Virus record (IMG/VR): IMGVR_UViG_2724679140_000011
Span: 1-52,019 of that record
Reading direction: 5' to 3' (one strand)
Length of the DNA: 52,019 nt
From: a virus
Taxonomy: Duplodnaviria > Heunggongvirae > Uroviricota > Caudoviricetes
The position numbers were made by a program, and so were the translations under genes. The notes beneath the pieces are model-generated. The model saw nothing but the letters and a program-made list of their open reading frames with translations. It had not been told where the DNA came from and made no database searches. Of the stretch, positions 22,305 through 43,819 are shown one piece after another (position 1 is the first letter of the stretch; every line of letters starts with the position of its first letter).

Positions 22305-22330
22305 TAAAAAATCCCGGTACTGGACCGGGA
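22305..22330 (-). terminator. rho-independent terminator after the delta gene
   Basis: tcccggtactggaccggga hairpin followed by T6 on the minus strand. Confidence 0.5.
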
Positions 22331-22352
22331 CTACGTGGGCGTATTTTGCTAA

Positions 22353-22625: not shown

Positions 22626-22626
22626 A

Positions 22627-23963: not shown

Positions 23964-24089
23964 TTGTGCCGATGCCCATACAAGCGCACTACCGAGGGGG
24001 ATTGTGTCAGTGACAGAACAATGACCTTGTTCTGGCTAGCCAGAGAAATGTGTCATGTCTGATCTTCAACTTTCCTTTAATAAATACTA

Positions 24090-24300
24090 TTCACTACTGT
24101 TCACTTTGATAAAAAAATTGATAATACAGCTAGTTAAGAGGTGAAGGGTTGACAAGGCAGTATTCAGTGACTGTTCATGAGTGTTCATCGGAAGGTAGCG
24201 TGATTTATGATTTTTTTTCATCAAAAGTGAAATTTTTATTCCGAATGATTATTTCATTATTGTTCCTCACAACTATTCACCACTCTTCAGTAGTATTCAA
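24090..24300. repeat. iteron cluster of TGTTCAC-like repeats (P4 ori/crr-type, tentative) within a late promoter region
   Basis: tgttcac, tattcac, tgttcat and gtgaag copies read repeatedly in both orientations. Confidence 0.45.
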
Positions 24301-24843
24301 CAGATGATGAAATAGACGATTTTTCTTTGCCGGGAAATAACATGATTCCCCCCTTTCCCTGGTGTTGCATTTCAATCTGATTTTTATAAAACTAGAACTG
24401 CTCGGTCTTTTATGAATTTATTTGGATATATTTTTAGGTTAAGAATGCGTGGTTATTGATTTTATGCGGTTCTAATTCTTCTGAGCTTGATGCAATTCAT
24501 GAGTATATCCTGAAGTTAGGTTTGCAATGTAAAGCCATATGTAGAAATTGTGCATCCCTGCTGAATGGGTTGCGGTTTCAGTACCATTAAGTTCTATGAC
24601 TTATGGGGTAGTAACCCCTGGATGAAAGTTAGTTCCTATTAATGTCCCTGTATTTATAGTTCGCAGACATAATATCTATCATGCCATTTTATGTGGTTTG
24701 ATATAGTTTTAAATTCCATTAAATCAATATGTGACGCTAAATAAATAATGGGTGCGTAAGCGAGAAATATATACATAATAAGGAACTACCTGAATCCGGG
24801 GGGATTTATCCGGACTGATGAAGGAATTAAAGAGGGTAGATAA

Positions 24844-25104
24844 ATGCATGATATTTCTGTTTCTGCGCCAGCTCCGGCTGCGCCATTATTTCCTGTGCTG
24901 AACCAGCATGAGCGATTTTTACGTCTTCCCGAGGTGATGCATTTATGCGGCTTGTCCCGCTCAACTATATACGACCTGATAAGCCGCGATGCTTTCCCGA
25001 AGCAGATCCCGCTTGGTGGTAAAAATGTTGCCTGGGCACAGTCAGAGGTAAGCGCATGGATGGCGGATCGTATAAGTGCCCGCGGACGGGGATGTGATGC
25101 ATAA
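24844..25104 (+). CDS. AlpA/Vis-family small DNA-binding regulator
   Basis: [48 protein letters not shown] is an AlpA-type HTH. Confidence 0.7.
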
Positions 25105-25655
25105 TGATGCCTGAACGCATTAATCCCCATTTTTCTGGCTTGCATCCTGCAGTCATTTCCAGGTATAGTTTTTCCGCTGCCGCAAAATCGGCAGCCGGAA
25201 TTGGCGTTCCGCGAAACTCAATGGCGACACCAGACGCGCCAAGCGTCTTTTTTTTCGTCGAAGCTCTGGCACACCCATTTTCCAGGCTGTGGTGTTTATG
25301 CGTACACCGTGGTTCTTTCGAGATAATGGCAGTCCGGGCGGGGCAGCCTTCGGGCTGGCCGGTATCCATTGAGGCCGGTTACGCCAACCCCGTTCGGGCT
25401 GCCACCAGTGAAATTGGCGTTTCCGGTGGTAGCAATAACCGCTACTCAATGGAGGCTGCCATCATGGCTACAACCCTCACCCCGTTTTACCCGCAATATG
25501 TCTTTGTGCTTGCCGCAATCCGCCGTGCTGACACTCAACCCCGCATCTGTATGCTTCGCACCGTGGCCTGCGATGAGCGCTTTGCACGCCTTTCGCTGGT
25601 CCGTGATTATGTGCTCTCCCTTTCTGCACGGCTGCCTGCCGGGGAGGTGATGTGA
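25104..25655 (+). CDS. hypothetical protein (P4 early region; start uncertain)
   Basis: ORF in GC-rich region; several overlapping frames, weak call. Confidence 0.3.
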
Positions 25656-25879
25656 TGAATCACGCCGCAATTTCTTATGACGATATTGTCCGCCTCAAGC
25701 ATCTTCGTAACGTGGGGGAATTTGTCACCGGAATGGCTGTTCTTCAGGACTGCTATGAAAAACCTGCAGGTGCTCAATGTGAGCAACTGGTTTCCCTGAT
25801 TTATCTGATGACAGAACAGCTTGATGGCGTGGTACAGCGTTGCCAGGATGACCTGATGAACAAGGAGGTGGTGCAATGA
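25652..25879 (+). CDS. hypothetical small protein
   Basis: Start overlaps upstream stop. Confidence 0.35.
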
Positions 25880-26199
25880 AATCACGCACTCTTCCCCTCT
25901 CACTTCGGCTGGCGTTATATCGCCGCGCGGTTGCCTGCGCCTGGCTGAGTATCTGCCATCAGCACAACCGCCACCTGCAGCTCACTCTGGATGAAATTGA
26001 AACCGCCATTGCCCGTGAGCTTGAAGGTTTTTATCTGCGACAGCACGGGCAAACAAAAGGCATGGAAATCGCCTGCGCCCTGCTTTCAGACCTGATGGAA
26101 TCCGGTCCTCTAATGTCCTGCCCCGCACTCTCCCAGCTCGGAATAGCCGTAATGGATGAGTTATGCGTCCGTCACATTATAAAGCCGGTTTTACACTGA
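25876..26199 (+). CDS. hypothetical small protein
   Basis: Start overlaps upstream stop; precedes alpha. Confidence 0.35.
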
Positions 26200-28547
26200 G
26201 GGAGAACTGCATCATGTCAGGAATGAAAGTCAGTCAGGCCGTGAAGGCTGCCCGCGGTCACTGGGCGCGGATTTTGCCAGCGCTGGGTATGAACATACTG
26301 AAAAATCGCCATCAGCCTTGTCCGGTCTGCGCCGGTAAAGATCGTTTTCGCTTCGACGATCTGGAAGGACGTGGAACATGGTTCTGCAACCAGTGCGGGG
26401 CTGGGGACGGTTTAGCGCTTGTCAGCAAGGTACTGAATGTGGATATCAGTGAAGCAGCAGACAGGATACATGGACTGACACATAGTCTGTCTTCAGCCTC
26501 TTCTGGAGTCTGGACGTCAACCGCAGATACAGATGGCGGGAAACAGGCGGCAGCAGCACTTGCCGCGCGACTACTGCAAGCCTCGCGTGAATCTGCCGGA
26601 AATACTTATCTTACACATAAAGGTTTCCCGGAGCATATTTGCCATGAGCTGACTTCAGGTCATAAAACCGGTGGGGTGATGTTCCACCCCGGTGATTTGA
26701 TCGTCCCGCTCTATAACGCTGACGGGGAACTGGTGAATATTCAGCTTATCAGTGGCAATGGTAGCAAGTGTTTTCTTAAAGGAGGTCAGGTTAAGGAGGC
26801 CTATCATCTGATAGAAGGGGGCGGGAGTTCTGTAAGAAGGATGTGGATTGCGGAAGGTTACGCCACGGCGCTTACCATTCGTCATCTGACAGGAGAAGCC
26901 GTCATGGTGGCATTTTCGTCGGTCAACTTTCTTTCTCTGGCCAGCGTTGCCCATAACAAGTATCCGGGATATCAGTTAATTATTGCAGCGGACCGCGATC
27001 TGAATGGTTCAGGCCAGAACAGGGCTGAAACTGCTGCAAAAGCGTGTCAGTGTGACATTGTGCTGCCACCGGTTTTTGGTGACTGGAATGATGCGCTTAC
27101 CCAATACGGAGAGGAATCCACCCGGAAGGCAATTCTTGAGGCTTTGAAGCCACATAACGCCAGTCCTTTCGACACAATGAGTGAAGCAGAATTCACAGCG
27201 ATGAGTGTCAGCGAAAAAGCTCAGAGGGTTCGGGAGCATTACAGGGATGCACTGGCGGTTGATCCGAACGGGCAGCTTTTATCCCGCTACGAGTCTGGAG
27301 CGTGGAAAGTGATTTCTCAGTCAGATTTTGCCCGAGATGTCGCAGCCCTTTTCCAGCGCCTCGGTGCACCGTTTTCCTCAGGAAAAATTGCTTCACTGGT
27401 GGAAACATTAAAGTTAATTGTTCCGCAGCAGCAAAATCCGGCACGTCATCTGATCGGTTTTCGTAATGGCGTCCTCGATACGCGAACAGGGCTGTTTAGT
27501 CCGCACTGTAAAGAGAACTGGCTGCGTACCCTGTGTGAAGTCGATTTCACGCCACCGGTAGAGGGGGAAACGCTTGAAACTCATGCCCCGGCATTCTGGC
27601 GCTGGCTGGACCGGGCTGCCGGACACAAGCCAGAAAAACGCGACATTATTCTTGCGGCGTTATTTATGGTGCTGGCGAATCGCTATGACTGGCAGCTCTT
27701 TCTGGAAGTGACTGGCCCTGGTGGAAGTGGCAAAAGTATTCTGGCTGAAATTGCGACCATGCTTGCTGGAGAGGATAACGCCACCTCTGCGACCATTGAA
27801 ACGCTGGAGTCCCCGCGAGAACGTGCGGCTCTGATAGGTTTTTCTCTTATTCGCCTGCCTGATCAGGAGAAGTGGAGCGGCGACGGCGCCGGGCTTAAGG
27901 CTATAACTGGTGGCGATGCGGTATCGGTGGACCCCAAATATCAGAATGCTTATTCAACACATATTCCGGCGGTTATCCTGGCCGTAAATAATAATCCTAT
28001 GCGCTTCACTGATCGCAGTGGTGGTGTGTCCCGCAGGAGAGTTATTCTGCATTTTCCTGAGCAGATAGCACCGGAAGAACGCGATCCGCAGCTGAAAGAT
28101 AAAATTGCACGAGAACTGGCTGTGATTGTTCGCCAGCTCATGCAGCGTTTCAGCGATCCGATGAGCGCCAGAACATTGCTTCAGTCGCAGCAGAATTCTG
28201 ATGAGGCTCTCACCATCAAGCGTGATGCTGATCCAGCATTTGATTTTTGTGGCTATCTTGAGGCATTACCTGACACCAACGGCATGTTTATGGGGAACGC
28301 CAATATTGTCCCACGCCAGCCACGTACCTACCTTTACCATGCCTACCTCGTATACATGGAGGCTAATGGATATAAAAACACCCTGAGTCTTACGATGTTT
28401 GGCAAAGGGTTGCCAGTCATGCTGAAGGAGTACGGGCTACATTATGAGAAACGGCGAACTAATCAGGGAATGCAGACTAACCTCACTTTAAAAGAGGAAA
28501 GTAATGCAGACTGGCTACCCAAGTGCGATGAGCCAACAATCAAATAA
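26163..28547 (+). CDS. P4 alpha-like primase-helicase (zinc ribbon + TOPRIM + D5-type helicase); probable start 26214
   Basis: [53 protein letters not shown], Walker A GPGGSGKS. Confidence 0.85.
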
Positions 28548-28565
28548 TTACAACTAACCCGGCTG

Positions 28566-28593
28566 ATGCCGGGTTTTATTTTTGCTGGCACAA
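28566..28593 (+). terminator. rho-independent terminator after alpha
   Basis: cccggctgatgccggg hairpin followed by ttttattttt. Confidence 0.5.
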
Positions 28594-28607
28594 GAATGTA
28601 GAGTTAT

Positions 28608-28690
28608 CTGTTCACTCTTCACCGTACAGTTAACTTCTATTTCCTTGATTTTGAATGGTAAAAATCCAAAGTGAACAGTGTGAACAATTT
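28608..28690. repeat. second TGTTCAC/GTGAACA iteron cluster (crr-like, tentative)
   Basis: tgttcactcttcacc and gtgaacagtgtgaaca. Confidence 0.4.
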
Positions 28691-28764
28691 ATTGAAAAAA
28701 GAGTTTTTTTGAATATAGAAGACCTATTTAGCGTGATTTTTTTAAAGTTCAATAAGTATTGCAC

Positions 28765-28790
28765 CCCGCTATTGGTATACGCTTAGGTAT
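28765..28790. promoter_or_regulatory. GGTATAC direct repeats near right end of the P4-like element (candidate arm-type sites)
   Basis: ttggtatacgcttaggtatac, same 7-mer as at 16545-16600. Confidence 0.3.
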
Positions 28791-28846
28791 ACAAACAAAA
28801 ACAACTTAAATAAATAACCAATTAAAACATAGATATAACATACAAA

Positions 28847-28870
28847 TTCAGACTCCGCCAGCCCCAATCA
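28847..28870 (+). repeat. degenerate ssrA 3'-end-like sequence, candidate distal att remnant
   Basis: ttcagactccgccagccccaatca versus ttcaactcccgccagctccacca. Confidence 0.45.
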
Positions 28871-28995
28871 TGATTGGACGGTATAAGGACAACACCAATA
28901 AAAACAGGAAGTTAGCAGTCTCAGCAGGACACCGACCAGACGGTGAAGAGACATAAAAGGATACGCAAAGGAGCCGCGGCTCCTGGTGACATGAA

Positions 28996-29018
28996 AGCCC
29001 ACAGATGTGGGCTTTTTC
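28996..29018 (+). terminator. hairpin agcccacagatgtgggct followed by T5
   Basis: Read directly; just beyond the autotransporter 3' end. Confidence 0.4.
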
Positions 29019-29026
29019 GTTGATGG

Positions 29027-32000
29027 TCAGAACGACCAGTTCACACCAGCTACCCCGTTCCACGGGGATTCCACACCGGCACCATGGCTATACCCCACCC
29101 CAAGATGCCCGCTTAACGTACTGCTGAATGAGGCTTTAATACCTGCCTGGTATATTCCACGTCTGCCCGACAAATCATTGACGAAATTACCGTCACTATT
29201 CACTTTCACCCGGTTATCATCGACAAATTCTTTGCGCACAGCCGCCTTCAGCCACGGCTCAACTTCCATACCGTTCCCCAGACGCATGTTGTAACTCAGC
29301 GTTGCACCCAGTTCACGATATAAACTGCGGGTATCGACTGATTTCGATTCCATGCCATTGGATAAATGATATTCAGGGTTATCAGCGGTGAACCCCCGTT
29401 AACGATGCATACGGCGTCAGGTTCCAGTTACCATCGGTAAATCGCATCCCGGTTTCAATGTGACCGCCCAGCCCGTTGCTGCGATAACTGCCGTTGGCGG
29501 CTCCACCGCTGCCAACCGTGGAGTCGCGAGCTTCGGTACCTGCTAATACCAATAAATTACCGCCATTTTCCAGCAACATATTGGTCGCTAAATTGCCGGA
29601 AATGGAAAAAGTGCCGTACTGGTGAGTACCGCTGATTTCAATACCGTTAGCCGTGCTCGTCTGGAGAGCGGCACCGCTGTTCTGGACGATATCTGTCGCT
29701 TTGCCATTATCGTTAACTGTCAGCGTACCGCCTTCATTGATCTTTGTTTTTATTGCCTCTCCGTTAGCTGAAACTGTTTGTATTCCGCCGTCGTTAATCG
29801 TTGTCTCATTCGCCACCCCCTCGACGATTTGTTCGCCGCCGGTGAGCGTCGTGCCTGTCGCAGTGGCTTTTGTTTTGACGATCTCCCGTCCGCCCGTATT
29901 GACCTGTGTTTTGTCAGAAGAGGTGTCTGACTCCATGGTTAACACGCCGCCATTTGCCAGCAGGATATTGTTCGCCGCACCCTGCTCGATGCTGAACGCG
30001 ACGCCATCCGCGCGTGTTCCTGTGACCCGCGTCGCCCTGGTGGTTGCAACCAAAGCGTCCTGGCTACTCTGCTGTATCCCCGTTGCGCTGCCTTTCTCCC
30101 GCACATCGAGTGTGCCGCCGTCATTAAGCACCGAGTTTTCAGCCAGACCGCCCTCATTAACTACCTGTGAACACCCATTAATAATGGAACCTTCCGCTGT
30201 CCCGTTTGCCATAATTTGTTGTAGGCCAGAGACGATATCGGTATTGATTGCCTTACCATAATTCTGAACGGTTTGCGTGCCACCATTGATGTGTGTTTTC
30301 TCTGTTGACCCACCATCAACAATTTGTTCACCACTTTCGATATTTGCCTCAGTGGCTAATCCATATACCGTTTGCTTGCCACCTTTGATATTTGCTTTAT
30401 CAGAAGTGGCACTGGCATATATTGTTTGGGTGCCAGCACTATTGAGTACAGTGCCAACATCTTTTCCATAAACATCCATTTTGCCGTTGGCATTAATAAT
30501 CGTATCAACTGCCCGGGAACCAGTGACGACTGTTAATGAGCCAGCGTTTTCCAGCACTACATTTTTAGCTTCTGAATTCCTGATGTAGAAAGCATCACCA
30601 TAACTGTTGGTTCCTTCGATAAGGGTTCCGGAAGTTGTGGAAGCAATTAATGCGCCGCCGGATTGTTGCTCAACATGCTTAGCCTCACCACCGTCCTGAA
30701 CCTCCAGAACGCCACCATTATTAAGTCTGGTGGTATCTGTTTTAGCCTCCTTCTGGACAATCAGCTTACCGCCAGCATCAACGGTAGTATTTTTCGCCGA
30801 GGTTTTAGCCACTACCGTCAGTTCGCCGGTATTTTCCAGCACAACATAATTAGCCTCCCCTCCGGTAATAGTGAAGTGAGAGAGCTTGTTGTATCCTTCA
30901 ATATCAGTCCCTGCGCCCGTGTTGGCAACTAAAGCACTGCCCGTCTCCTGGTTAACCCCATGTGCAATACCACCGGTATAGACAATCAGCGAGCCTCCGG
31001 CGCTAATATTGCTGCCAGTTGCCGTACCATCTTTCTCAACAACCTGCCGGCTCCCGGAGGATATAATTGTCGTGTCAGCTTTCCCGCCGCTCTTGATATT
31101 TTGCGTTCCGCCGTTGATATTGGTACCCGTGGCAATACCATGATTATTAATATTCTGTGTACCACCATTGATTATGGTATTGGTCGCGTTTCCGGTAACA
31201 TCCATTACCCCGCCGTTATCTATTCGGGTCGCATCAGCTTTAGCATTCGTTAAAACTGACATTGTTCCTTTATCTTTAATAATCGTCTTGTTTGCCGAAC
31301 CATATGCGTTTATGTCTAAATGACCACCGTTTTCCAGCAACACATTGTCTGCCACGTGATTGTGGATGGAGAATGCACCTTCACTATTCGTACCGCTCAC
31401 CGTCGTACCGTTAGTGTTTGTTTTTAAAATTGCACCATCGTGCTGGGTAACATTTGTTGCCGTACCACCACTAACATCAAGCACGCCACCGGAATAAACT
31501 TCAATAACATCCGAGGAGCTGGTGTAATCAACAATTTGCGTACCACCAGAATAGATCTGAGTATTTTTGCCGTTGACTTATTATTCAGAGACTGAGTTCC
31601 ACCTTCAATCGTCGTGTCCAGCGCATGGCTTTCATATACTCTTTGCTCACCGCCATTTTTAATGGTGGTTGTTCCTACTGTGCTCTGTTCAACATACTGT
31701 CGTCCACCATTTATGATTGTGTTCGTTGCAATACTTCCTTGCGTGATGTCCTGATAACCGGACTTATTTATCGTTGTACCATCAACATGCCCCTGAGTTG
31801 TTACTTTCTGCCCTCCACCATCAATGATGGTTCCATTCGCAGTCCCCCCACTTATGTGTGAATTACCACCCTTAATTGTCGTTCCATTGCTGATACCACC
31901 TGTATAAACGTCCTGATTGCCACTGTCGATTATCGTACCGGTGGAAATGCCCCCGTCATGAATTGTCTGTCTTCCTCCGTTAATGGTTGTATTATTAGCC

Positions 32001-32293
32001 TGCCCCACAAAATTGTTATGACTTCCTACATCTTGATATCCACCCGATTCAATAAGACTTCCATTAGATACCCCGCCATGAACATTCTGCTGGCCATGGT
32101 TGATAATATGAGTGTTATTTGTTGTACCTCGTTCATCTACTCTTTGGCTGCCATCTACAGTCTCATCGTTTACCACACCAATAACATCAGGAGTGAAGGC
32201 CGTCATCCCAGGCGGGGCATATATCAAGGCAGATATCAATAAGGAAAGTACTGAGCGGCGACAATAATGGGGACTGGTCCTGTTCATAAATTT
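29027..32293 (-). pseudogene. autotransporter adhesin (AIDA/YpjA-like) disrupted into three frames
   Basis: Extended signal peptide MKFMNRTSPHYCRRSVLSLLISALIYA; repetitive GGTQ/T-I-x-GG passenger; C-terminal barrel ending NWSF; frame breaks near 31424-31484 and 29354-29381. Confidence 0.7.
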
Positions 32294-32699
32294 CATCCTC
32301 TGAAAAGTGAATACTGAGTAGCGTTTAAGCGACCTTAGCTCTGCTGCAACATCAGCCCACAGGCACCAGACCAGGGGATTCATCCTGAAGAGACAGCGCA
32401 AGTGTATTGTGTTCACCGCTCATCAAAGACATCATGATGAAATGATGATATTCCACATAAGAAAGAAGCATTTTTTAAACGCAGTGCGCTGAAGTATGGT
32501 TGGATAAAAAAGTCAATCTATTCAGGGAATACGGGGGTATTCTTTTCTTTCGACAATCAGGCCGTCGGCAAAATAAAATGATTTACATAATCGTTTCTGA
32601 TGAATATCTTCTGCTCACATAAAAATAACACAATAACTTTGAGATCGCAGATTCTTTTACTTTTACAGCATTCGTCCCCCCATTGTTGGGCAAATATAG

Positions 32700-32815
32700 A
32701 TTGGGCCAGAGCACGAAAGTTAATACCACGTTTGCACAGCTCCTCCAACAGCACGACAAGATGCCACATACTGCGCCCCAGTCGGTTCGGTTTACAGACT
32801 ACCCGTGCGTCCACC
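32700..32815 (-). pseudogene. Pin/Hin-family serine invertase fragment
   Basis: VVCKPNRLGRSMWHLVVLLEELCKRGINFRALAQSI matches the central resolvase-domain pattern; no N-terminal catalytic region. Confidence 0.5.
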
Positions 32816-32819
32816 GCCG

Positions 32820-32940
32820 ATAATGTCCTGAGCAGTTTTTTCAGTCCGGACCTCCTGCCACGGTTTTACGTTGAAGAGGTAACCCTGAGCACGCAGTTCA
32901 TCAGTCAGGCGTGGTGTACCGTAACCCTATTATTGATGGG
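32820..32940 (-). pseudogene. IS3-family transposase fragment
   Basis: YGTPRLTDELRAQGYLFNVK in another frame, truncated by a stop. Confidence 0.4.
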
Positions 32941-33199
32941 TAAGATCAAAAAAACTTTCAGGCAGCTAAGGAAAGTTGAACCAGACATTAGAATAAATAT
33001 TTCAACCAATTACAGCACCAATTCAGACACCGCCAGCTCAACAAATAAATCAAGGGGTTACGTGAAAGCGTAGCCCCTTTTTCTTTGGTAGTGGCAGCAA
33101 AATGGTTGTAGTGTAAAAAATAATCCCGTTTAATCAATCAATAATACATATTGTTTCAATCTACGTTATTATCTCTTTGTAAAAATAGCCATTTATTAA

Positions 33200-33943
33200 T
33201 CATTGAAAACTGCTTTTAGAACTTGATACAACGGGACTAGTCACAACAGGACTATTCTCAACGGGATCATCCTCAGAGGAACTATCATCAAAGTCATCAT
33301 CCATAAATAAAATATCATCGAATGGTGCCACGCCCGTGATGAGTTTTATTTTATTATTACGATCAGTCAAGACTCCACTTAAACCGTTTTCGCTCACAGG
33401 TTTTAATGATTTTTCATTACTCTTGTTGTAAGCAGGCGCATTAAAAATACACGGAGTATCAAGATCAAACAATGACGTTCCCCAGTTCACATATTGAATA
33501 TCATAGTTACTGAAGTTCTGTCCAGAAAAGAAGCATCCCTTAAAATCCAATCCACCTAAATTATATAAACCATCCTCTTCTTTTTGGAGAGTAATGTTAA
33601 TTTTGGCTATCTCCCGGACATCATCGCCATTTTTATATTTGAATACCGTTTCAAGATTTTCCCCACACAGTTTGACTTCTGGAAATAATTTGAAATCAAA
33701 GCCTATATTATTATGTATCAACGTAGATGAACAAAAGATGGAGAAAGCTTGCAGTGCTGAATTATAGCTTTCGATTTTATCCTGAGGCTGCGCTCTTGGT
33801 AAAAACTCATAGCAACATTCATAAAAATTAAGTAGAAACTCTGAAGACCTTCCATTTTTATCAAATAATATCCCCTTGAACTCATTCACAAACGCATCTT
33901 TTTTTTCTTGAATATCTATGGGGTGTTCCTTTGACTCTGACAA
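33200..33943 (-). CDS. hypothetical protein, 247 aa, AT-rich, acidic/Ser-rich C-terminal tail
   Basis: Downstream gene of a two-gene AT-rich operon. Confidence 0.5.
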   Translation of the reverse strand: MSESKEHPIDIQEKKDAFVNEFKGILFDKNGRSSEFLLNFYECCYEFLPRAQPQDKIESYNSALQAFSIFCSSTLIHNNIGFDFKLFPEVKLCGENLETVFKYKNGDDVREIAKINITLQKEEDGLYNLGGLDFKGCFFSGQNFSNYDIQYVNWGTSLFDLDTPCIFNAPAYNKSNEKSLKPVSENGLSGVLTDRNNKIKLITGVAPFDDILFMDDDFDDSSSEDDPVENSPVVTSPVVSSSKSSFQ

Positions 33944-33957
33944 AGATGAAATCTCAT

Positions 33958-34572
33958 CTATTTTTTTTCATATGAATTACGTGATTCCATACAGACATTT
34001 GGCGGCGTTTCTAAAATAACACTACGCGTACTACTTGGCTTAAGTAAACCAACATGAAAATCACTTTTTCTTATATTATCGAAAAGGTTCTGTTCATTTC
34101 TTTTAACGCATTCAAAAAACTGATCGTCATTATTTTTATTCGATAATTTTTTAGTTTCAGAAAACACATTTTCATTGTTTTCCAGCTTTAGTTTAATGAG
34201 AAGATTTTCCCAGACCTGCTTGCTTAAACATATTACGTCAGGCTCACCAGAACTAACTAACTCGTGATTATTATTAAAGTGTACGTTGAATACCTTTAAG
34301 TTATTTTCACCAACTTCATATTTAATACGTTTTAATTGTTCTCCAACTCCCATAATGACAAAGGCGTTGCCTTCATGATATATACATTCAGACATCATTT
34401 TTTGTAAAGTTTCAAGAGCACCGCGATACGTCTCTGATGCAGCTTCCTTACAAATTAATTTTAAAATACTATGAGCTAGTAGCTCCATGTGTTTAGAAGA
34501 TTTATTTTCATTATAACTTCCACTACCCAAAACTGCGCTAGCGTTAAATCCGTTGCTTTTACTAACTAACAT
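33958..34572 (-). CDS. hypothetical protein, 204 aa, AT-rich
   Basis: Upstream gene of the operon; 14-bp gap to the next gene. Confidence 0.5.
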   Translation of the reverse strand: MLVSKSNGFNASAVLGSGSYNENKSSKHMELLAHSILKLICKEAASETYRGALETLQKMMSECIYHEGNAFVIMGVGEQLKRIKYEVGENNLKVFNVHFNNNHELVSSGEPDVICLSKQVWENLLIKLKLENNENVFSETKKLSNKNNDDQFFECVKRNEQNLFDNIRKSDFHVGLLKPSSTRSVILETPPNVCMESRNSYEKK

Positions 34573-35321
34573 TGTCTATTCCTCAATTAATGTCTACATG
34601 GCTATTTTTAATGTTATTACTGTTTGTCACTATAAAAAAACGCTCATTTGAGAAAATTACTGATATTAACTGCTTCACTTGCTACGCATGGAACTTTTAA
34701 TTAAATTAGCACAGGAATGTTAAATTTAATAAACAAAAGGTTATTTCGCTGTATGATAAAAAAACCGTTATAATTTATTAGTGAAAATCGTTTTTCAAGT
34801 GTTAGAAATTTATATCTCAATAGCGTTGGTTAATGAGCATAGCCACGCTCCTGTAACGCTCACAAAACTCATCTGCCTGCGGCGGGTGTTCTGGTCAGTA
34901 GTAGATGTTTAAGGCGTGGCAGAGACATTTCATCCTTACTCTACGGCATTGTTCTACATACATTGGTTGTGGTACTCACTCATCATCAGTGAGCGAACAG
35001 AGAATAGTTCAGTGATTTGAGTAATTAACCTGATTAAATTAAGGGGTATAATAAATGATAATACTCTGGCTTTATCGTTAATTACTTAATTCCACATGTA
35101 AGCAATTTGCCCGCTTGGCATAGCAGGCATTTTTTCCAGGTACTTTTGAATGAGTACTGATGGATAAATACATTGCAGTGGCGTGCCACGTACCAAAACA
35201 CCAGCCCTCATTCGAAACCACCCACCGCACTTCTTCCTTGAAATGGCGTTAGTCATGAAATATAGACCGCCATCGAGTACCCCTTGTACCCTTAACTCTT
35301 CCTGATACGTAAATAATGATT

Positions 35322-35368
35322 TGGTGGCCCTTGCTGGACTTGAACCAGCGACCAAGCGATTATGAGTC
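35322..35368 (-). repeat. tRNA-Ile (CAU anticodon, ileX/ileY-like) 3' fragment, att-site copy
   Basis: Minus strand reads gactcataatcgcttggtcgctggttcaagtccagcaagggccacca; the 5' half is absent. Confidence 0.7.
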
Positions 35369-35564
35369 ATGAGGCAAGTTCGTTCTATATTGTTTTTGTT
35401 TGTTCGTGATTGTTTTATTAGTTGTTTATAATCAATGAATTATGTAATTTTCTCTGTCTCCGCTTGGTTCCGTTTTTTCTTCATTGTACGATCGTTACCT
35501 GACCCATTACCTGACCCAAAATCACGAGTTATTCTGATTGTTACTGGTTTAGAAAAGAGGTTCT

Positions 35565-36881
35565 ATGGCCGTCAATCTTACTGAAACAGCCATCCGAGCA
35601 TTGAAAGCAAAAAAGACATCGTTCTATGTCTGGAGCAACAGCTCTCAACGTGGCACTGGACGACTTGGTGTCAAAGTTCAGTCTTCTGGCAGCAAGATTT
35701 TCTATTTCCGCTATTATGTGGAAAAAGGGAAAAAAGAAAGATTCATTCAATTGGGTATATGGCCTGAGATGAAACTGGCCACAGCGAATGAACTGGCAAA
35801 AAAGTATGGTGCCTGGCTCATTGAAGGAAAGGATCCCCAGGCAGAACTGGAACGACAACAGTTTGCAGAACAGCAGCGGATACAACTCCATCAATCACAG
35901 GGCTCATTTGAAGCATTGATTCATGGTTATGTTAACAAAATGAAAATTGATAATAAGAGGACATGGCAGGATGTTCTGAAACGCCTTGAAAATGAATGCT
36001 ATACAGTGATCCCCCGTGAAACTAAAGCTAAAGATGTGACTTCCGGACAGATTAAACATATCCTGGCCGGGATCATTCAGCGTGGTGCTGTGGTTCACTC
36101 TAACCGGATCCGTTCTTACCTGATGGCTGCATTTAACTATGGACTGAAAGCAGATAACGATCCGATGAACACAAGTGCAGGGATTACTTTTGGGCTGGAG
36201 GCAAATCCGGTGTCAGTGATACCGAAACAGTCATCTGCTGAAAAAGTCGGTGATACTTGGCTGACACTTGAAGAGTTGCGTTTTCTAATGGAACATTTTG
36301 CTGAAGCAACCAACGTTGGATTATTGATGCAACATTTGATCCGATTCTGTATCTATACCGGAGGGCAACGTCCCTTCGAAATGATCGCCAGTCAGTGGTG
36401 TGATGTTGATTTTCAACAAAAAACGCTGCTGGTGACTGCTGATGTCTCTAAAAATAAACGAGAGCATTTGATACCGTTGACTGAATCAGCATTACAGGAA
36501 TTATCCTGTGTGCAGGAGTTAACAAAAGAAAAATCCAGCCCTTACATTTTTCCACTTTCGACTAATGGTAAGCGTCCGGTTCGTACGGACAGTCTGGCTC
36601 GCGCTATCATGTATTTCCGGGCTTTTAATCCTGACTTTAAAATTTTTACAGCACGTGACTTACGTCGGACCTGTAAAACGTTAATGGGAGAAGCTGGGAT
36701 CAGTAAGGAGATCCGCGATCGTATTCAAAATCATGCGTTGAACGATGTCAGTTCAAAACATTATGATCGATACGATTATTTGCCAGAAAAACGCAGAGCA
36801 CTTGAGATCTGGGAGGACCGGGTTAATAACTATCAACAGCAAACAGGCAATAATGTTGTCAATCTGTTTGGCAGAAGGTGA
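35565..36881 (+). CDS. P4-type tyrosine integrase
   Basis: 438 aa; N-terminus ...TSFYVWSNSSQ...KIFYFRYY typical of the P4-type arm-binding domain; adjacent to the tRNA fragment. Confidence 0.9.
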   Translation: MAVNLTETAIRALKAKKTSFYVWSNSSQRGTGRLGVKVQSSGSKIFYFRYYVEKGKKERFIQLGIWPEMKLATANELAKKYGAWLIEGKDPQAELERQQFAEQQRIQLHQSQGSFEALIHGYVNKMKIDNKRTWQDVLKRLENECYTVIPRETKAKDVTSGQIKHILAGIIQRGAVVHSNRIRSYLMAAFNYGLKADNDPMNTSAGITFGLEANPVSVIPKQSSAEKVGDTWLTLEELRFLMEHFAEATNVGLLMQHLIRFCIYTGGQRPFEMIASQWCDVDFQQKTLLVTADVSKNKREHLIPLTESALQELSCVQELTKEKSSPYIFPLSTNGKRPVRTDSLARAIMYFRAFNPDFKIFTARDLRRTCKTLMGEAGISKEIRDRIQNHALNDVSSKHYDRYDYLPEKRRALEIWEDRVNNYQQQTGNNVVNLFGRR

Positions 36882-36980
36882 GGGAGTTCCTGGTCGCTGT
36901 ACGAATTGTGTACAATTGATGGGTATTGTTGATGCACTTGGTTCTTGTATTGTTTACTATAATTATTGAGGTAAATTTTC

Positions 36981-37607
36981 GTGCCGGTATTACTCAGAGG
37001 GGATTCAAAAATGGCTGTAATTCCAATGTCTTACTCCCCTGCTACTGTAGCTCGTCGTTTTTCGATACTGGATGGAGTAACTATTCAGGGCGTGCTTTAC
37101 CAGATCATCTGGGATCCAAAGACTCCGTTTGCTGCGGTAATCGAAGCTGCACCTTCTGTTATTGATGGTGATGTTCGCCATAAGGTTGTTGCCACTCTGG
37201 AGCTTCAGCGTCGTCCCCGGCTTGAAGGCGTGTTTGTCCAGAAATTCTGGGAAGAACAGGATGTTGCTCAGATTGAAGGGATTGTTGTCGATGGCGCTGT
37301 ACGTGATGTTGGTCTTGCAACGTTTGTTTATGAAACGATAGTCACAAAAGCGGGCGTTGTACTATTAAGTGATAACGAGCAATATGAAGGAGGTAAAGCT
37401 CTCTGGCAGCATATTGCGCGTCGTTCAACGAATCTGAAGGTGTTTATTTTAGATACTGATTCCGCACGGTATTACCCGTTTGATGGCGAACGGATCAGTT
37501 ATGACGGGAAAAGCATCCCGGAATCAGAAATCTGGAGTGAACATCCTGAGCGAAACAGACACGCTGTCGTTCTTGTGGCTGAATCTGTTAATGGCAAAGC
37601 CGCATAA
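36981..37607 (+). CDS. hypothetical protein, about 200 aa
   Basis: ORF downstream of the integrase, convergent with the 534-aa gene. Confidence 0.5.
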   Translation: MPVLLRGDSKMAVIPMSYSPATVARRFSILDGVTIQGVLYQIIWDPKTPFAAVIEAAPSVIDGDVRHKVVATLELQRRPRLEGVFVQKFWEEQDVAQIEGIVVDGAVRDVGLATFVYETIVTKAGVVLLSDNEQYEGGKALWQHIARRSTNLKVFILDTDSARYYPFDGERISYDGKSIPESEIWSEHPERNRHAVVLVAESVNGKAA

Positions 37608-37689
37608 TTTGCCGAGTGTCTCGTTTTTTGAGATCTTGCTGGAAAGTCTCCCTTGGGGATAGCGAACTGCTATCCCCTTTCTCAGTGAG

Positions 37690-39294
37690 TTACTGTTCGA
37701 CCAGACATTTTCCCCATAAAGGTCGTATCGAGTATCTATCTTCGCTATATGGATTTATTTTATTTTTTTCCCTCTGTGCTATCAGCAACGTGTCGATCTC
37801 ATCCTTAATAATGTGTTGAACTGCTTGACGGTAACGGTTAAGCGAAGTGTCACTGATATCTTGTGGAAGTTGTAGACTGCTATCTGCCTTGACGAGTTCA
37901 TTCACACCATCTTTAATTTTGCGTCCCTGACCATCAGGTATACCTTCATTCAGATCATAGCCTTTCAGTCCTGCAAGACGAATATTCACGTCAATCTTTT
38001 CTGTACGTTTCTTTTTGTTACTTACCAACAGAATTTTATTGGCGTTATACCATTTTTCAAATGTTTCCAGTTGTTTCATGATGTTTGTGAAGTTATTCAG
38101 TTCGCTCCTGAATTCAATAGATTTTCTAATTTCACGCTCTTTTGCATCAATGTTTATTCCTGGATAATTTATTTCCCTTTTTAACGGTTCTATGTATGCC
38201 TGTTGCAGGCAACCAGCAAGATTCATTGCTGCATCCTGCAGGGTATTGGTATAAATCAGTTTCAGAAGTTCATCGCGCTGTATAGTGATTTGACAATAGT
38301 CTTTTTCCCATGCGGTGGTGTTTTCAATCGTGTCACTTTCATCGGAAATAATTGTTGTGAATTTCCAGGTGTAACGAATAAAATCATTTCCTTTAAAATA
38401 TTGCACTAATTTATTTAACCATTCATATATTTCCAGAGCATAAAGTTTAACGTATCCATCATATATTATCTTTGTTGCATTTTTGTTGGCTAGCGAAAAC
38501 ATTTTGTCCACGAATTCTGTACGCCCGATTGTTAGCAATTGTTTTCTAAGTTTACTCACATCGTTAGTATCTGGTTTCTCACAATTCCAGGGACTTTTGT
38601 ATTCATTTTCAAAAGGAGAAAGCCATTCAGGAATCTCTGTTTTTGAGTGATAGCAGTTGTTAATAGCCAAACCAAGGGTTCTGGCAAGTATCGCTGATTC
38701 ATCAATTTGATGGTATCGGTTCAGTTGTTCCAGTAATTCTTTAGTACATGAGTGCGCAACAGAAAGATCCTGATGGCAATATCCTTGTCGAACCAGAGCG
38801 GGAAGTGGTGAGCAATGAGCTTTACAATCTGTCAGAATATTGAACAAATCGTTTCTGACGAATTCTTCCATCTCAGGTGTTTTCCAGCCACCACTATTTT
38901 GGCCGACAAATTTTGCTGTTGGTTCCCTGTTCATATCTCCCCAGGTTTTCAGGCTGACGAGTCTGTTATCAAAACCATTGTATAAATGGCACATAACCTG
39001 AAAAGCAGCATACAGCTCTTTAGATAGTGGATTATCGGTCTCACCTATGGAGTAGTCCTCTCTATTTTGCTCTAAAATATTTTGTAGTTTTGTGTTAGCG
39101 CGTAATGCCGAGAGAATCCGATGTTGTTCATCAAACCAGGGACGATATTCTGGATCCAGATACAATCTGCGTGCTTTGAAAATGAGTAGAAGCAACTGTT
39201 CGGAAACAGCTTCATGTATGTGGGGAAACGGCATGGAGGTGCCAGATAAAACACGATAGTACGGGTGGTTTGTTTTTACCTTTTTAGTTACCAT
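37690..39294 (-). CDS. hypothetical protein, 534 aa, AT-rich orphan gene
   Basis: Long ORF in AT-rich DNA with no recognisable motif; integrase-proximal position. Confidence 0.65.
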   Translation of the reverse strand: MVTKKVKTNHPYYRVLSGTSMPFPHIHEAVSEQLLLLIFKARRLYLDPEYRPWFDEQHRILSALRANTKLQNILEQNREDYSIGETDNPLSKELYAAFQVMCHLYNGFDNRLVSLKTWGDMNREPTAKFVGQNSGGWKTPEMEEFVRNDLFNILTDCKAHCSPLPALVRQGYCHQDLSVAHSCTKELLEQLNRYHQIDESAILARTLGLAINNCYHSKTEIPEWLSPFENEYKSPWNCEKPDTNDVSKLRKQLLTIGRTEFVDKMFSLANKNATKIIYDGYVKLYALEIYEWLNKLVQYFKGNDFIRYTWKFTTIISDESDTIENTTAWEKDYCQITIQRDELLKLIYTNTLQDAAMNLAGCLQQAYIEPLKREINYPGINIDAKEREIRKSIEFRSELNNFTNIMKQLETFEKWYNANKILLVSNKKKRTEKIDVNIRLAGLKGYDLNEGIPDGQGRKIKDGVNELVKADSSLQLPQDISDTSLNRYRQAVQHIIKDEIDTLLIAQREKNKINPYSEDRYSIRPLWGKCLVEQ

Positions 39295-40073
39295 AATGTT
39301 AAATTCTTCCGTCTATTGCATAGCTGTTTCCTGTAGAGAAACTTGATACAGTCCTTTGTCAGGACATTGATACAGAGTTAACAGCCTCTACGAAATGGGA
39401 ATCAGTTATGCAGTGGCATTATACGATGCTGAATCTAATACGATATCCTTAGCGTTTATTCCTGATTTTTTTACGAGCATTCCCTTTTGTTGCATATTGC
39501 TCAGGACGTAAATGATTTTACGGTTATAGCCCTCTACAGTCACGTCACTTTCATCTGAAAATATGTATCGTTTTCATTCAATTATTATCTTTTGTCTGCA
39601 CTTTAGCTTTAGCAAGTTGGCAAAAATCAACTCCCTCTTACAAGTTCTATTATCGCTAGAAGATAATTTTGTGAACTTCGTCACGTTTTCAAACTAATGT
39701 TGTGGGGGCTTTTCTGGGGAAAATTTTTGGTCACTACCCCTCCTCTTGATATCATAGATCATAACAAGATTTTTTTTGTTTTTGTCTGCATAAAATAACC
39801 TACGAAGATTATGATTTTGGTTTTTATTTTGTATATTAAAAAGTATTGTTTGAATTATTTTTATATTGTGACTTTCTTTGTTGTTATTGTGTTATAAGAA
39901 GTCAGTTAATTAAATCAATTCTCGCAATTTGATTTCTTTGTTGTGCAAATGTATTGTTTTGCTCGTGAGTTGCTGGTGCTGTTCAGCAGCATACCACTAC
40001 AGATAGATGTAGTGATTTGAGCAGCTCACATGCATATACAATCTGAAAATCATGAATGTATAAGGAGAGCAAT

Positions 40074-40301
40074 ATGTGGAAGCCGTTAAGAGATGAGAAC
40101 CGTTTATCAATTTTGAAGATCTATGGATACACCTGTGACAGACTGGTACGAGAAGAGGAACGTCAGAACATTACGTCTATTTCTCGTTCACAAGCCTGGA
40201 AACTGGAACGTGAAGGAAAATTCCCGCCACGTAAAACTATTGGAAAGAAATCCTGTGGATGGTTATTAAGTGATCTATTGTGGTGGATTAGTCAGTATTA
40301 A
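40074..40301 (+). CDS. AlpA-family DNA-binding regulator
   Basis: aaggag SD then ATG; ISRSQAWKLEREGKFPPRKTIGKKSCGWLLSDLLWWI resembles the AlpA HTH. Confidence 0.6.
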   Translation: MWKPLRDENRLSILKIYGYTCDRLVREEERQNITSISRSQAWKLEREGKFPPRKTIGKKSCGWLLSDLLWWISQY

Positions 40302-40363
40302 CCTTATAGTATCAGAATAATATATATTTCTATATTTTAATTTTATAATTAAAAAGGAGTTTC

Positions 40364-41110
40364 ATGATGAAACGTGTCTCTTTTTCTCTTGCAGAAACAT
40401 ATGAAGCTGATGTAATTAAAAAGTATCAGTATTTAAAAAAATGCTCATTTTCAGCAGCGATTAAAGAGTGTTTAAAGCTAGGGGCTCCTGTTTTAAACAG
40501 GATAAATGAAAATATTGCTGCTATAACTGATATAGAGGATAAGCTACGTCAGTTTTTTAATGAGGAACCATTTGTGCAACGGACAAAGCCTGAAATAACA
40601 AAAGGAGAGTTTTTTCATAGCATTTATAAATCGCATATCAAATATGAATATGATGTTCTCGATAGAAAGATATTTCCTCATGAAAGCACCAGAAATGCTA
40701 TGGGAGTTGCAGAGAAAAAGGGAATTAAAGAGAATGCGACCTTAATGCTGGAATATTATAAAGTTGAGAAGGCAATTTGTATTTACACGAACAGAAAAGT
40801 TTCCCATACCCTGAATTGTGCAGGAGGGTTTTATAAAACCATTCTGATTAAAACCAGTGTTTTTGGGGATTGTTTTTTTGACTTTTGCAATTCAGTTTGC
40901 CTGCCGATAGATGAGTTGATTGAGTATGGTACGAAAGAAACAGTGAGGCGACATCAGATTCGTAGTACAGGATTTTGTACTTTTCATATTCCGATTTTTT
41001 ATATCAACAATAAGGCTGTAATAGTGCCTGTTCTGAGAACAGAGGAAGTTTCACAAAGTTCCAGAACAGGTGGAGATGTTATTATTATTAACCCATTTGA
41101 AGATGAATGA
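40364..41110 (+). CDS. hypothetical protein, 248 aa, N-terminal RHH-like segment
   Basis: aaaggag SD; N-terminal KRVSFSLAETYEADVIKKYQ resembles a ribbon-helix-helix start. Confidence 0.55.
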   Translation: MMKRVSFSLAETYEADVIKKYQYLKKCSFSAAIKECLKLGAPVLNRINENIAAITDIEDKLRQFFNEEPFVQRTKPEITKGEFFHSIYKSHIKYEYDVLDRKIFPHESTRNAMGVAEKKGIKENATLMLEYYKVEKAICIYTNRKVSHTLNCAGGFYKTILIKTSVFGDCFFDFCNSVCLPIDELIEYGTKETVRRHQIRSTGFCTFHIPIFYINNKAVIVPVLRTEEVSQSSRTGGDVIIINPFEDE

Positions 41111-41331
41111 TTATGGCCCGCGTAGATTTATTCATAACCCAGAAATCGTGGTGTAAATGATGAACAGAAACCGCTTTCTGAGGTTAAAGAGAGCAATCAT
41201 TACCCGGGAGTGGCCAACTCTTTTATCGAGTACTTTTCCGATGTATCTGGAGAGTCTCCCTTAGAAAAGAGTAATGCGACTCAGGAAAAAACAGGTTCAA
41301 TAATTAATTCATGACACCAGTTTGAGGCATT

Positions 41332-41892
41332 ATGGCGAGTTTTGCATACATAGACTCTGAAAAATGGTCAAAACTTAATCGCTTAAAATCCATGATTCAG
41401 AGATATTTTAAAGAACCACTATTGCAGTTAACAGGCGAATTGGGTCGCCCGGATTATACTCTGGCAGACAGAAAACGGTTAGTTCGACTCCTGACGCAGG
41501 ATATGCAAAGGGGTGATATTCTGATTACTAAATCGTTAACTTGTTTTGGTAATACGCCGGAAAAAATACAGGAGGTTTTATCTTTAAGTATCAGACAAGG
41601 TATTAATATTTGCTTTTTTATGTCATCAGAGTTGCCGGATGGTGATGATATTCCTGTGGTACTCACCGGGATGATTTTACCTACAGATATTAGAGGAAAA
41701 ATTCCCGACATCAGTATCCGGAAAATTAAAAGAAAACCAGGAAGGAAAGAAGGGAGTATTCATAGTAAAAATATCAGACAGTTGAAATTGCAGGGGTTCA
41801 GTCAGTCACAAACAGCCAGAAAATTAAGCATCAGTTTATCCACTGTAAAAAGACACTGGGATAAAGGTATTGTTGATCTAACTGCAGAGTAA
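41332..41892 (+). CDS. degenerate serine-recombinase-like protein with C-terminal Hin-type HTH
   Basis: Resolvase-like layout with C-terminal SQSQTARKLSISLSTVKRH; the canonical YxRVS catalytic motif is not intact. Confidence 0.5.
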   Translation: MASFAYIDSEKWSKLNRLKSMIQRYFKEPLLQLTGELGRPDYTLADRKRLVRLLTQDMQRGDILITKSLTCFGNTPEKIQEVLSLSIRQGINICFFMSSELPDGDDIPVVLTGMILPTDIRGKIPDISIRKIKRKPGRKEGSIHSKNIRQLKLQGFSQSQTARKLSISLSTVKRHWDKGIVDLTAE

Positions 41893-42280
41893 TATTTTAT
41901 AGTCCTTGTAGCTATTGGCATTGGAGTTATAAATACATGTGTGTTGGATAGGTAATATATATTATATCTGTGATGTATAGTATCTGGTATCTGTGTAATG
42001 ATGGATATGATGTACTAATAGAGCTAATGGTATTCTGATACCAAATAATTAGTTGTGTATAGATCATAACTCTGTTTAATGTTTTAGAACGTTCTAATGT
42101 AACTGTGTAACATCATCCTGTTCTCTAATGTAACAATAGGTAGTAGCGTTTTTCTTAATTGACGCCCAGAGGGTTATATATCCCTCTGGGAAGTACTGAT
42201 ACGAATATTAATATCTGCTTCTGTTGTGTATTGGGTAGGTTAACTATTAGCTTATCCCTGAAAGCAAAAGGAATATTAAC

Positions 42281-42895
42281 ATGATTACGATTGAAACTCT
42301 TTACGGTGAATGCCATGAGGCTCACGGGTTAAAAATAAGAAACCAGGTGGATAACCTTTTCCAGAAACATCCCAGAATAACGGCAATACGGGTGGATCTC
42401 CATTACCCTCCCGTGATTGACAACGGGGATACCATTACCTGTTTTCCTAACCTGAGTCCCGGAGAGATATCTCGTTTCCGTAACTCGCTGAATGCGAAAA
42501 TTAATGCAGATCAACACCGTAAAAAACAACAAGGCAAACGCACCTACGCAACGTCGGTTTGTATTATCTGGGCGAAAGAATATACGCAGTCCTTTAAATG
42601 TCATTATCACGTCTGCCTTTTTTTTAACAAAGACGCTTATTACCACCTGGGAGACTATGAGCGCTCTGACACCCTGAGAGGGTTAATTACCGGAGCCTGG
42701 TACAGTGCCTTAGGGTTAGAACTGGAAGATCACCAGGGACTAGTTCATTTCCCTGCTAATGGACGTTACATCCTGGATATTAACGATCCTGATTTCCCTG
42801 AGCAGTATCAGCGCTTATTGGCACGTCTGGATTATCTGACGAAGCTCGACACTAAAGCATCAGGCCAGCGTAACTTTGGCTACAGCGGTTTTTGA
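42281..42895 (+). CDS. YagK/YfjJ-family (inovirus Gp2-like) protein, tentative
   Basis: CHYHVCLFFNKD segment; family typical of CP4-type islands as recalled. Confidence 0.5.
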   Translation: MITIETLYGECHEAHGLKIRNQVDNLFQKHPRITAIRVDLHYPPVIDNGDTITCFPNLSPGEISRFRNSLNAKINADQHRKKQQGKRTYATSVCIIWAKEYTQSFKCHYHVCLFFNKDAYYHLGDYERSDTLRGLITGAWYSALGLELEDHQGLVHFPANGRYILDINDPDFPEQYQRLLARLDYLTKLDTKASGQRNFGYSGF

Positions 42896-42922
42896 CCTAT
42901 TGTAACTGTAAGGTGATTTATT

Positions 42923-43489
42923 ATGTATACAGAATCAAACGTTAAGCTTTCCTGTAATGCCCTCTGGCAAAAGTGTGTCCTTGCAACTCTGTACCGGGCT
43001 GCAGCTACACATCCTAAAATTAAATTATTACAATTTAAATTAATACCTTACCCTGGTATGAATAAGGCAATTCCATCTCTGATGGCTGATTTTACTGGTG
43101 AACTGCATAGACTAATTTCTGAATATTTGCAGTGTAAGCGACGTAAAGATAAATCTGTTGAGCCCACCCCTTTATATTATCTCTGGAGTAGGGAGGCCAT
43201 GGCTAACGATACCACTCCTTATCTTATGGTACTGCTACTTAATAACGATGTCTGGTGTAAGAGTCGTGAGGTGGTGGTTCTCAGAAATCTGATTGAGCAG
43301 GCGTGGGGAAAAGTATTGGATGAAGATAACTCTGTTACACATCTGGTTGTGTATCCTGAAGTGCTGTCGTTAGTATTTGATGCAGCTAACACATACAACA
43401 CTGAGCTTGGTGTACTGGAACAGACGGCCCAGGCTTACATTGAATCGCATGGTGCCATTGAACGTCATCTTGGGTGTAGTGACTTTTAA
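42923..43489 (+). CDS. paralogue of 42281..42895 (YagK/YfjJ-like)
   Basis: Similar length and shared YLMVLLLNND-type core with the upstream gene. Confidence 0.5.
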   Translation: MYTESNVKLSCNALWQKCVLATLYRAAATHPKIKLLQFKLIPYPGMNKAIPSLMADFTGELHRLISEYLQCKRRKDKSVEPTPLYYLWSREAMANDTTPYLMVLLLNNDVWCKSREVVVLRNLIEQAWGKVLDEDNSVTHLVVYPEVLSLVFDAANTYNTELGVLEQTAQAYIESHGAIERHLGCSDF

Positions 43490-43819
43490 CCTCAGGTGAT
43501 GCATAAGGGCCTTTCGCTGAGAGGCCCTGTTTACACAATTAAATAAATCGAGCCCGACCAGCAATTTTGACGTTGACGGCAGGATTATTGAGGGGCAATC
43601 AATGTGTTATTCGGCAGCGATTACGGTAGTGAACGGACCTGCTGTCTGAATGGTATCGATCCGCAAGCGTATCTGCGCCATATTCTGTGCGTACTACTGA
43701 AATGGCTAATGGCAGTAAAGAGAGACTTTACATATATTTGCATAAAGTAGGATTTTACGACTAGTCAACATTTTTTATAATTCTTCAGGTTCAGAGTATC
43801 TGACATACAGGGTTATGTA

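Follow-up and report, generated by a model that had tools for sequence, protein, structure and literature searches.

The apparent two-gene operon beside ileY is very probably a frameshifted copy of the known Escherichia coli gene ypjCB

In Escherichia coli K-12, ypjC (b2650, a pseudogene) and ypjB (b2649) together correspond to the single RefSeq gene ypjCB, whose coding sequence (CDS) in strain MG1655 is marked 'internal stop'. A constitutive RpoD (sigma-70) promoter and an H-NS site lie upstream of ypjC in K-12 (PMC3946193), and Hha binds the ypjC region, with ypjC transcript levels responding to Hha (PMC2408971). We compared this locus with positions 33200 to 34572 of IMG/VR virus record IMGVR_UViG_2724679140_000011, a stretch of 52,019 nt that was analysed at its full length and is called the window throughout; the regulatory data, and the phenotype data discussed below, come from K-12 and not from the window's strain. 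An initial annotation of the window had described two minus-strand genes of no recognised family, arranged as an operon and pointing to horizontally acquired cargo. We conclude instead that the two open reading frames (ORFs) are, with high probability, the halves of one known gene, ypjCB, inactivated here by a frameshift, and that there is no two-gene operon. The locus is already known, as the long-known ypjC/ypjB pair and as a frameshifted pseudogene in RefSeq.

The window and K-12 copies match the same family models, and both are pseudogenes. They share the locus and its neighbours (ypjA/ehaD, the pinH remnant and ileY), and their DNA is 97.6% identical. They differ in the lesion, which is a CAG to TAG change at codon 161 in K-12 and the loss of 1 bp in a run of A residues at codon 204 in the window; moreover ileY is interrupted by a further island in the window, unlike in K-12. 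The parts of the gene are as follows.

33200..34572, minus strand: probable ypjCB pseudogene, one ancestral 457-codon ORF split by a frameshift (NF050179 over both halves, frame-repaired score, RefSeq annotation)
33958..34572, minus strand: N-terminal fragment, codons 1-204 plus the premature TAG at 33958-33960, with the whole DUF5507 domain inside (ORF, Pfam match, sequence)
33961..33968, minus strand: A8 homopolymer, the lesion, reading A_AAA_AAA and then TAG in the frame of the first ORF (DNA alignment, junction survey of 21 loci)
33200..33961, minus strand: C-terminal part of ypjCB in the -1 frame, codons 205-457 plus the stop, DUF5508 region (ORF, Pfam match, conceptual translation)

The two ORFs lie exactly where they had been placed: the first at 33958..34572(-), with 204 amino acids (aa) and an ATG start, and the second at 33200..33943(-), with 247 aa counted from the first TTG, the spacing between them being 14 bp. 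The claim of a very AT-rich composition also holds. The GC content is 0.30-0.36 over 33200-34800 (in 400-bp windows) against 0.453 for the whole window, and this is the most AT-rich part of the neighbourhood; the two ORFs have GC contents of 0.32 and 0.355, and of 0.26 and 0.32 at third codon positions (GC3).

Where no family had been recognised, profile searches placed both ORFs. The 204-aa ORF matches Pfam DUF5507 over the full length (PF17612; 1.2e-107) and the 247-aa ORF matches Pfam DUF5508 (PF17621; 4.2e-167), an architecture also found in intact YpjCB proteins. In the NCBIfam model NF050179 (Ecoli_YpjCB, 465 positions), the 204-aa ORF occupies positions 1-203 (382.3 bits) and the 247-aa ORF positions 227-465 (545.1 bits), and the frame-repaired (-1-shifted) product of 457 aa scores 934.9 bits over positions 1-465, the curated cut-off being 650 bits. 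Because one family model spans both, we read the two ORFs as one gene. For the closest strains, at 99.9% identity, RefSeq has a single CDS, 'YpjCB family protein, frameshifted', and the annotation under the megablast matches reads 'ypjCB: YpjCB family protein' or 'DUF5507 domain-containing protein'. With one model, a 1-bp deletion that makes the 14-bp gap and one RefSeq pseudogene in place of two genes, the operon first proposed is not borne out.

The break itself comes down to one base. In an alignment of the window with seven alleles, intact alleles read TAT GAA AAC AAA ATA GAT where the window reads TATGAAAAAAAATAGAT, with one C missing; at 33961-33968, where the window has a run of eight A residues (A8), intact alleles carry AAAACAAAA or a run of nine (A9). 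With A8 replacing AAAACAAAA, translation from the ATG at 34572 reads GAA AAA AAA TAG and therefore terminates after 204 residues, at the TAG at 33958-33960, with a residual 253 codons in the -1 frame. The unbroken reading frame expected of an intact gene is lost in the window through this 1-bp deletion. The 247-aa ORF is the continuation in the -1 frame, its TTG being the first start-like codon past an out-of-frame TGA that this frame contains shortly before the A8 run. A GAGG ribosome-binding site (34581-34584) stands 8 nt upstream of the ATG at 34570-34572, whereas no Shine-Dalgarno-like sequence was found in the 25 nt before the TTG at 33943 (AAAAAAAATAGATGAGATTTCATCT). Only the N-terminal DUF5507 fragment would then be made, and solely when silencing by H-NS/Hha is lifted, and the C-terminal DUF5508 part would be essentially unmade.

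Intact YpjCB alleles of 449, 457, 476, 484 and 491 aa are common, within a range of 449-492 aa across thousands of contigs; examples are WP_000906745.1/WP_000906744.1 (449 aa, O157:H7-type), WP_001521105.1 (484 aa) and P0170/P0172 (457 aa). These alleles are colinear with the window over their full length, but their reading frame is uninterrupted. Alleles are mosaic, and in the long ones the linker that joins the two Pfam domains has 35 additional residues. Between the intact 457-aa allele P0172 and each window ORF there is one residue of difference, two in total; P0172 reads ...NSYEKKIDE... where most alleles read ...NSYENKIDE...; an in-frame A9 run was confirmed in the DNA of a YEKKIDE allele (L028, TCATATG-A9-TAGAT). 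Because an intact A9 allele exists, the simplest path suggested by the sequences leads from AAAACAAAA through A9 to A8. A C to A change would first have given the in-frame A9 run (Asn to Lys, the gene remaining intact), and replication slippage would then have dropped one A. Alternatively, the C may have been deleted directly. A 205-aa variant, P0169, which ends in ...YEKNR followed by a stop (46 contigs), implies from its protein sequence an A7 form, so that the tract-length states in this allele group are A9, A8 and, putatively, A7. In all 60 of the best-matching complete genomes, which come from many hosts, the match has exactly the 1601 bp of the query; that is, A8 is fixed in them. The A8 alleles are nearly identical and have no second lesion, a short recombinant 5' stretch in one strain excepted.

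These data bear on several other accounts of the locus. That the ORFs are chance products of AT-rich non-coding DNA deserves practically no credence: nothing speaks for it beyond the absence of a known function, and it is refuted by the shuffle test (the longest stop-to-stop stretch is 255 codons, whereas in 1000 shuffled versions of the region it averaged 78 and peaked at 181), by the 26-83 stops in the remaining frames and by the conserved ORFs of 449-492 aa. A true two-gene operon, in which the 247-aa ORF would be translated by termination-reinitiation at the TTG 14 nt past the stop, is scarcely credible. The closeness of the ORFs would suit it, as would the older annotations that give the halves as separate proteins and the position of the K-12 stop and the frameshift of the window's clade, both of which fall in the predicted disordered linker between the Pfam domains. 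The split, however, is a single-base deletion relative to nearly identical intact alleles, and the TTG lacks a ribosome-binding site of the kind that precedes the first ORF. Furthermore the boundary is not conserved, since relatives have one ORF or break elsewhere (K-12 at codon 161), and the curated annotation is that of a pseudogene.

The lesion itself invites a further account, which we consider unlikely: ypjCB could be a leaky or recoded gene, with a -1 ribosomal slip or an extra A added by RNA polymerase yielding the full-length 457-aa protein. Genes that use recoding have slippery sites such as A_AAA_AAG in dnaX and A_AAA_AAN in the IS1/IS3 families of insertion sequences (IS), and ypjCB shares with these a 0-frame heptamer of A residues and a downstream ORF in the -1 frame. 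At 33961-33967, A_AAA_AAA lies in the frame of the first ORF with the 0-frame TAG directly after it, a perfect X_XXY_YYZ heptamer. The -1 product would carry the junction peptide NSYEKKIDEISSLSESK and would be full-length YpjCB (934.9 bits), identical to the product of the A9 allele, and all A8 genomes examined retain an intact downstream frame. C_AAA_AAA gave 25-60% -1 frameshifting in E. coli on over-expression (PMC1851650), and E. coli genes avoid AAAAAAA in every frame, an avoidance attributed to slippage and indels (PMC4066793). The gene would in that case be down-tuned, not dead, and given that A9, A8 and the putative A7 alleles all exist, the tract could be a mutational switch (A9 on; A8 and A7 off). 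That these alleles form a crude expression dial, slippage still giving a little full-length protein, for an H-NS-silenced, fast-evolving, E. coli-specific YpjCB whose conserved pentapeptide-like turn and acidic tail would point to a secreted host- or partner-binding factor, is decidedly improbable. Unlike the dnaX and IS sites, the ypjCB site comes without a stimulatory structure or Shine-Dalgarno element: the downstream 79 nt fold at -6.7 kcal/mol (z-score 0.19), 114 of 200 shuffles folding as well, and no Shine-Dalgarno-like motif was found upstream of the A8 heptamer. Nor is the site conserved in the family, being a recent mutation. The A-run is missing from 18 of the 21 surveyed E. coli loci, 14 of which read AAAACAAAA and 4 of which carry other sequence, and A8 occurs only in the three loci of the window's clade. 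The 60 closest genomes, all fixed at A8, give no sign of rapid switching, and in other lineages plain nonsense mutations have knocked the gene out, consistent with simple decay.

Some observations nevertheless weigh against complete inactivation of ypjCB, the interpretation that we prefer. Every pseudogene allele has a single lesion, and its downstream frame is still fully open; this fits recent inactivation, though it would also be compatible with the halves still being in use. Since the A8 site is a slippery heptamer, some function may survive the lesion. Finally, deletion of ypjC in K-12 modestly raised biofilm colonisation by an enteroaggregative strain (PMC3646849), and because of this mild phenotype the N-terminal fragment or its transcript may have some role.

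Viewed across E. coli, ypjCB appears to be dispensable and to be decaying species-wide. The comparative analysis that had been proposed with the initial annotation found both intact and broken alleles. Of 5426 complete E. coli genomes searched by megablast, 3080 have the locus, which is invariably chromosomal and as a rule in single copy; ~43% of complete genomes are without a ypjCB copy. Lesions were surveyed in 21 of 24 full-length carriers drawn from a rank-spread megablast list; 8 of the 21 were intact and 13 (~60%) disrupted, ten by the K-12 type change from CAG to TAG at codon 161, two by the A8 frameshift and one by a TAG at codon 119. A separate frameshift, A7 to A8 at nt 1226, affects one O157:H7 strain, and in other strains the gene is gone together with ileY through an IS-mediated (IS1) deletion, the same loss having been described for strains W and B (PMC3032704). 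There are at least four independent lesions among the sampled carriers. The ratio of nonsynonymous to synonymous substitution rates (dN/dS) was 0.5-0.9 between allele pairs, intact ones included (e.g., 0.75 between the O157-type and the 484-aa type), which indicates weak constraint or diversifying selection; the evolution of intact alleles is almost neutral.

The family has a narrow distribution. An exhaustive phmmer/HMMER scan of 1.84 billion representative proteins returned a single full-length cluster of the family along with fragments of it, and a pattern scan across 185,579 species, each represented by one genome, found E. coli and Shigella records only, bar a short contig in a metagenome bin labelled Planococcaceae. 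Gene order was constant in all seven loci fetched with their flanks, from the pinH remnant/ypjA to ileY, and the tRNA-Ile was intact in six of them. As an accessory gene confined to Escherichia, ypjCB occupies the ileY end of the ssrA-ileY island region; its homologues in relatives did not turn out to be core genes of ordinary GC content. The suggestion of horizontally acquired cargo stands in part. It agrees with the AT-richness, the accessory distribution confined to E. coli and Shigella, the adjacent tRNA and mobile-element debris, and the binding by H-NS and Hha in K-12, but no donor lineage was found. We infer that ypjCB is old horizontally acquired cargo.

The ancestral protein is predicted to comprise, in order, an N-terminal alpha/beta domain, a long disordered linker and a helical plus beta-meander domain, then a short segment that resembles pentapeptide repeats and, last, an acidic disordered tail. 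AlphaFold2 (AF2) gave an unreliable model of the full-length protein (predicted local distance difference test, pLDDT, 36). The C-terminal half was modelled at pLDDT 55.7, with a usable core at residues 10-135 (pLDDT ~60-86) that consists of three helices and a three-stranded sheet, the rest being disordered. Two segments of this half stand out.

33464..33568, minus strand: most conserved stretch of the family, seven pentads (clustering of invariant columns)
33203..33325, minus strand: acidic Ser/Pro-rich C-terminal tail (PFDDILFMDDDFDDSSSEDDPVENSPVVTSPVVSSSKSSFQ), predicted disordered (composition, pLDDT ~31-39)

The tail conforms to its earlier description as acidic and Ser-rich, the last 44 residues of the 247-aa ORF including 9 D, 2 E, 10 S and 4 P. 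The pentads (LYNLG GLDFK GCFFS GQNFS NYDIQ YVNWG TSLFD) each have a hydrophobic centre, directly preceded by D or N in five of the seven, and their periodicity was reached in 3 of 20000 shuffles. Pentapeptide-repeat proteins (PF00805) include the type III effectors PipB2 and EspX, and YpjCB resembles them in having seven consecutive pentads in its most conserved part; it differs in that the stretch has only ~35 residues and the AF2 model contains no confident beta-helix. Scanned alone against Pfam Pentapeptide (PF00805), the pentad segment scored 12.6 bits (E 0.1), below the 20.2 cut-off, and neither the PDB sequence and profile searches nor the phmmer scan detected homology to any pentapeptide-repeat protein. 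Membership of the pentapeptide-repeat family was not assigned, since the Pfam score is below the cut-off despite the non-random periodicity.

Beyond its own families, YpjCB gave little in the way of matches. PDB sequence and profile searches returned 0 matches, Foldseek against PDB found no fold relative (best E 0.017, template-modelling score 0.15), and PADLOC defence-protein models yielded 0 families at E <= 1; the sole PHROGs match was an unknown-function family that contains YpjCB itself. The remote-homology and structure checks once suggested for this locus therefore returned the protein's own families and no distant sequence or fold relative. The only non-family match by phmmer was a repeat-summed one to a 2688-aa immunoglobulin (Ig)-repeat protein, P0154, which we regard as unreliable. 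It pairs residues 319-384 of P0001 (~33500-33700) with the ~70-residue Ig-like repeats of P0154 at a summed E of 1.4e-7, and single BLAST segments reach 5e-4 or worse; either a remote beta-sandwich similarity or a repeat-summing artefact would give this picture. Readings of ypjCB as a defence system or as a phage structural gene were rejected.

Certain features of YpjCB are compatible with an effector. The N-terminus is Ser/Asn-rich and its first 21 positions lack acidic residues, the protein has no signal peptide as judged by reading the sequence, the GC content is low and the gene lies in an island; these points are circumstantial. PDB, phmmer and Foldseek searches found no homology to any type III effector, and a literature search on the locus found nothing relevant among the papers listed. 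The missing signal peptide, the Ser/Asn-rich N-terminus and the acidic, disordered tail would also be compatible with a partner-binding protein that leaves the cell by a non-classical route. We would speculate, with more doubt than belief, that YpjCB served in host interaction or as an accessory factor that binds other proteins, possibly after secretion of this kind.

On the upstream side, the gene is bounded by two further features.

34573..35321, minus strand: AT-rich upstream region between the ileY remnant and the ypjCB start, by K-12 homology a promoter/silencing region (alignment with K-12)
35322..35368, minus strand: tRNA-Ile gene ileY, 3' 47 nt, an attachment-site remnant holding the insertion of a second island (K-12 ileY alignment, synteny break at 35368, O22:H8 locus annotation)

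The block at 34573..35321 is 96.7% identical to K-12 throughout. Promoter-like matches upstream of ypjCB were no more frequent than expected by chance, and Rfam gave no match in the ypjCB region. Both flanks are as the initial annotation had described them, with the 3' 47 nt of ileY on one side and a pinH recombinase remnant (~32696-32863) downstream of the gene. Between ypjCB and that remnant, the plus strand has a strong GC-rich hairpin of 12 bp, followed by a T-run (33052-33079), ~120 nt past the ypjCB stop; it is terminator-like for transcription arriving from the pinH side. The neighbouring autotransporter gene ypjA/ehaD (28816-32416) is also a pseudogene, with a ~1.3 kb deletion relative to K-12 and a frameshift; its ORFs at 29382-31484 and 31424-32416 overlap.

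Colinearity of the window with K-12 ends midway through ileY (35368), and beyond this point comes an integrase gene (35565-36881). Past the ileY remnant, the stretch from 35322 to 52019 contains this tyrosine integrase and an island with genes of the two-partner-secretion/contact-dependent inhibition (CDI) type, including ShlB/FhaC (45339-47078), a HlyC-like acyltransferase (47088-47615) and an N-terminal fragment of a filamentous haemagglutinin. In the near-identical O22:H8 strain RM10809-3, the island runs on into IS66 copies and a tellurite-resistance (ter) island, an arrangement in agreement with the 'tRNA-Met ypjC-ygaQ' site reported for ter insertion (PMC8193136).

On the other side of ypjA, 16403-28900 is a P4-like satellite identical to one that adjoins ssrA in strain 789. 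Its genes include an integrase, ogr, psu, an icd-like gene and a primase (26163-28547), together with a Hachiman defence pair consisting of a DEAD/DEAH helicase (18402-20984, minus strand) and HamA (20986-21927, minus strand); Rfam places C4 antisense RNA at 25322-25409 and isrK at 25176-25253. The 3' end of ssrA is represented at the satellite only by a 23-nt repeat (28847-28869). Positions 1-15000 hold the end of a lambdoid prophage, with a Q antiterminator (1902-2732, minus strand), a primase (3589-4557, minus strand), a helicase (4559-6217, minus strand), an S24 repressor (7570-8259), an integrase (13700-14905) and the small RNA STnc100 (16-224, minus strand). Because the prophage end and the P4-like satellite are both present, the window is read as a tandem array of elements at ssrA, without an intact ssrA; ARAGORN found no intact tRNA or tmRNA in the window.

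The value of these results is mainly corrective: the locus is not to be counted as two genes, nor as an unrecognised family. For new biology the locus matters little. YpjCB is a true orphan; limited to one species, silenced by H-NS/Hha, evolving almost neutrally and lost again and again, it offers a tidy case of E. coli shedding old island cargo. If the intact alleles, for instance those of the sampled O157:H7 and urine isolates, do have a role in host interaction, the on/off pattern of ypjCB across lineages would gain interest.
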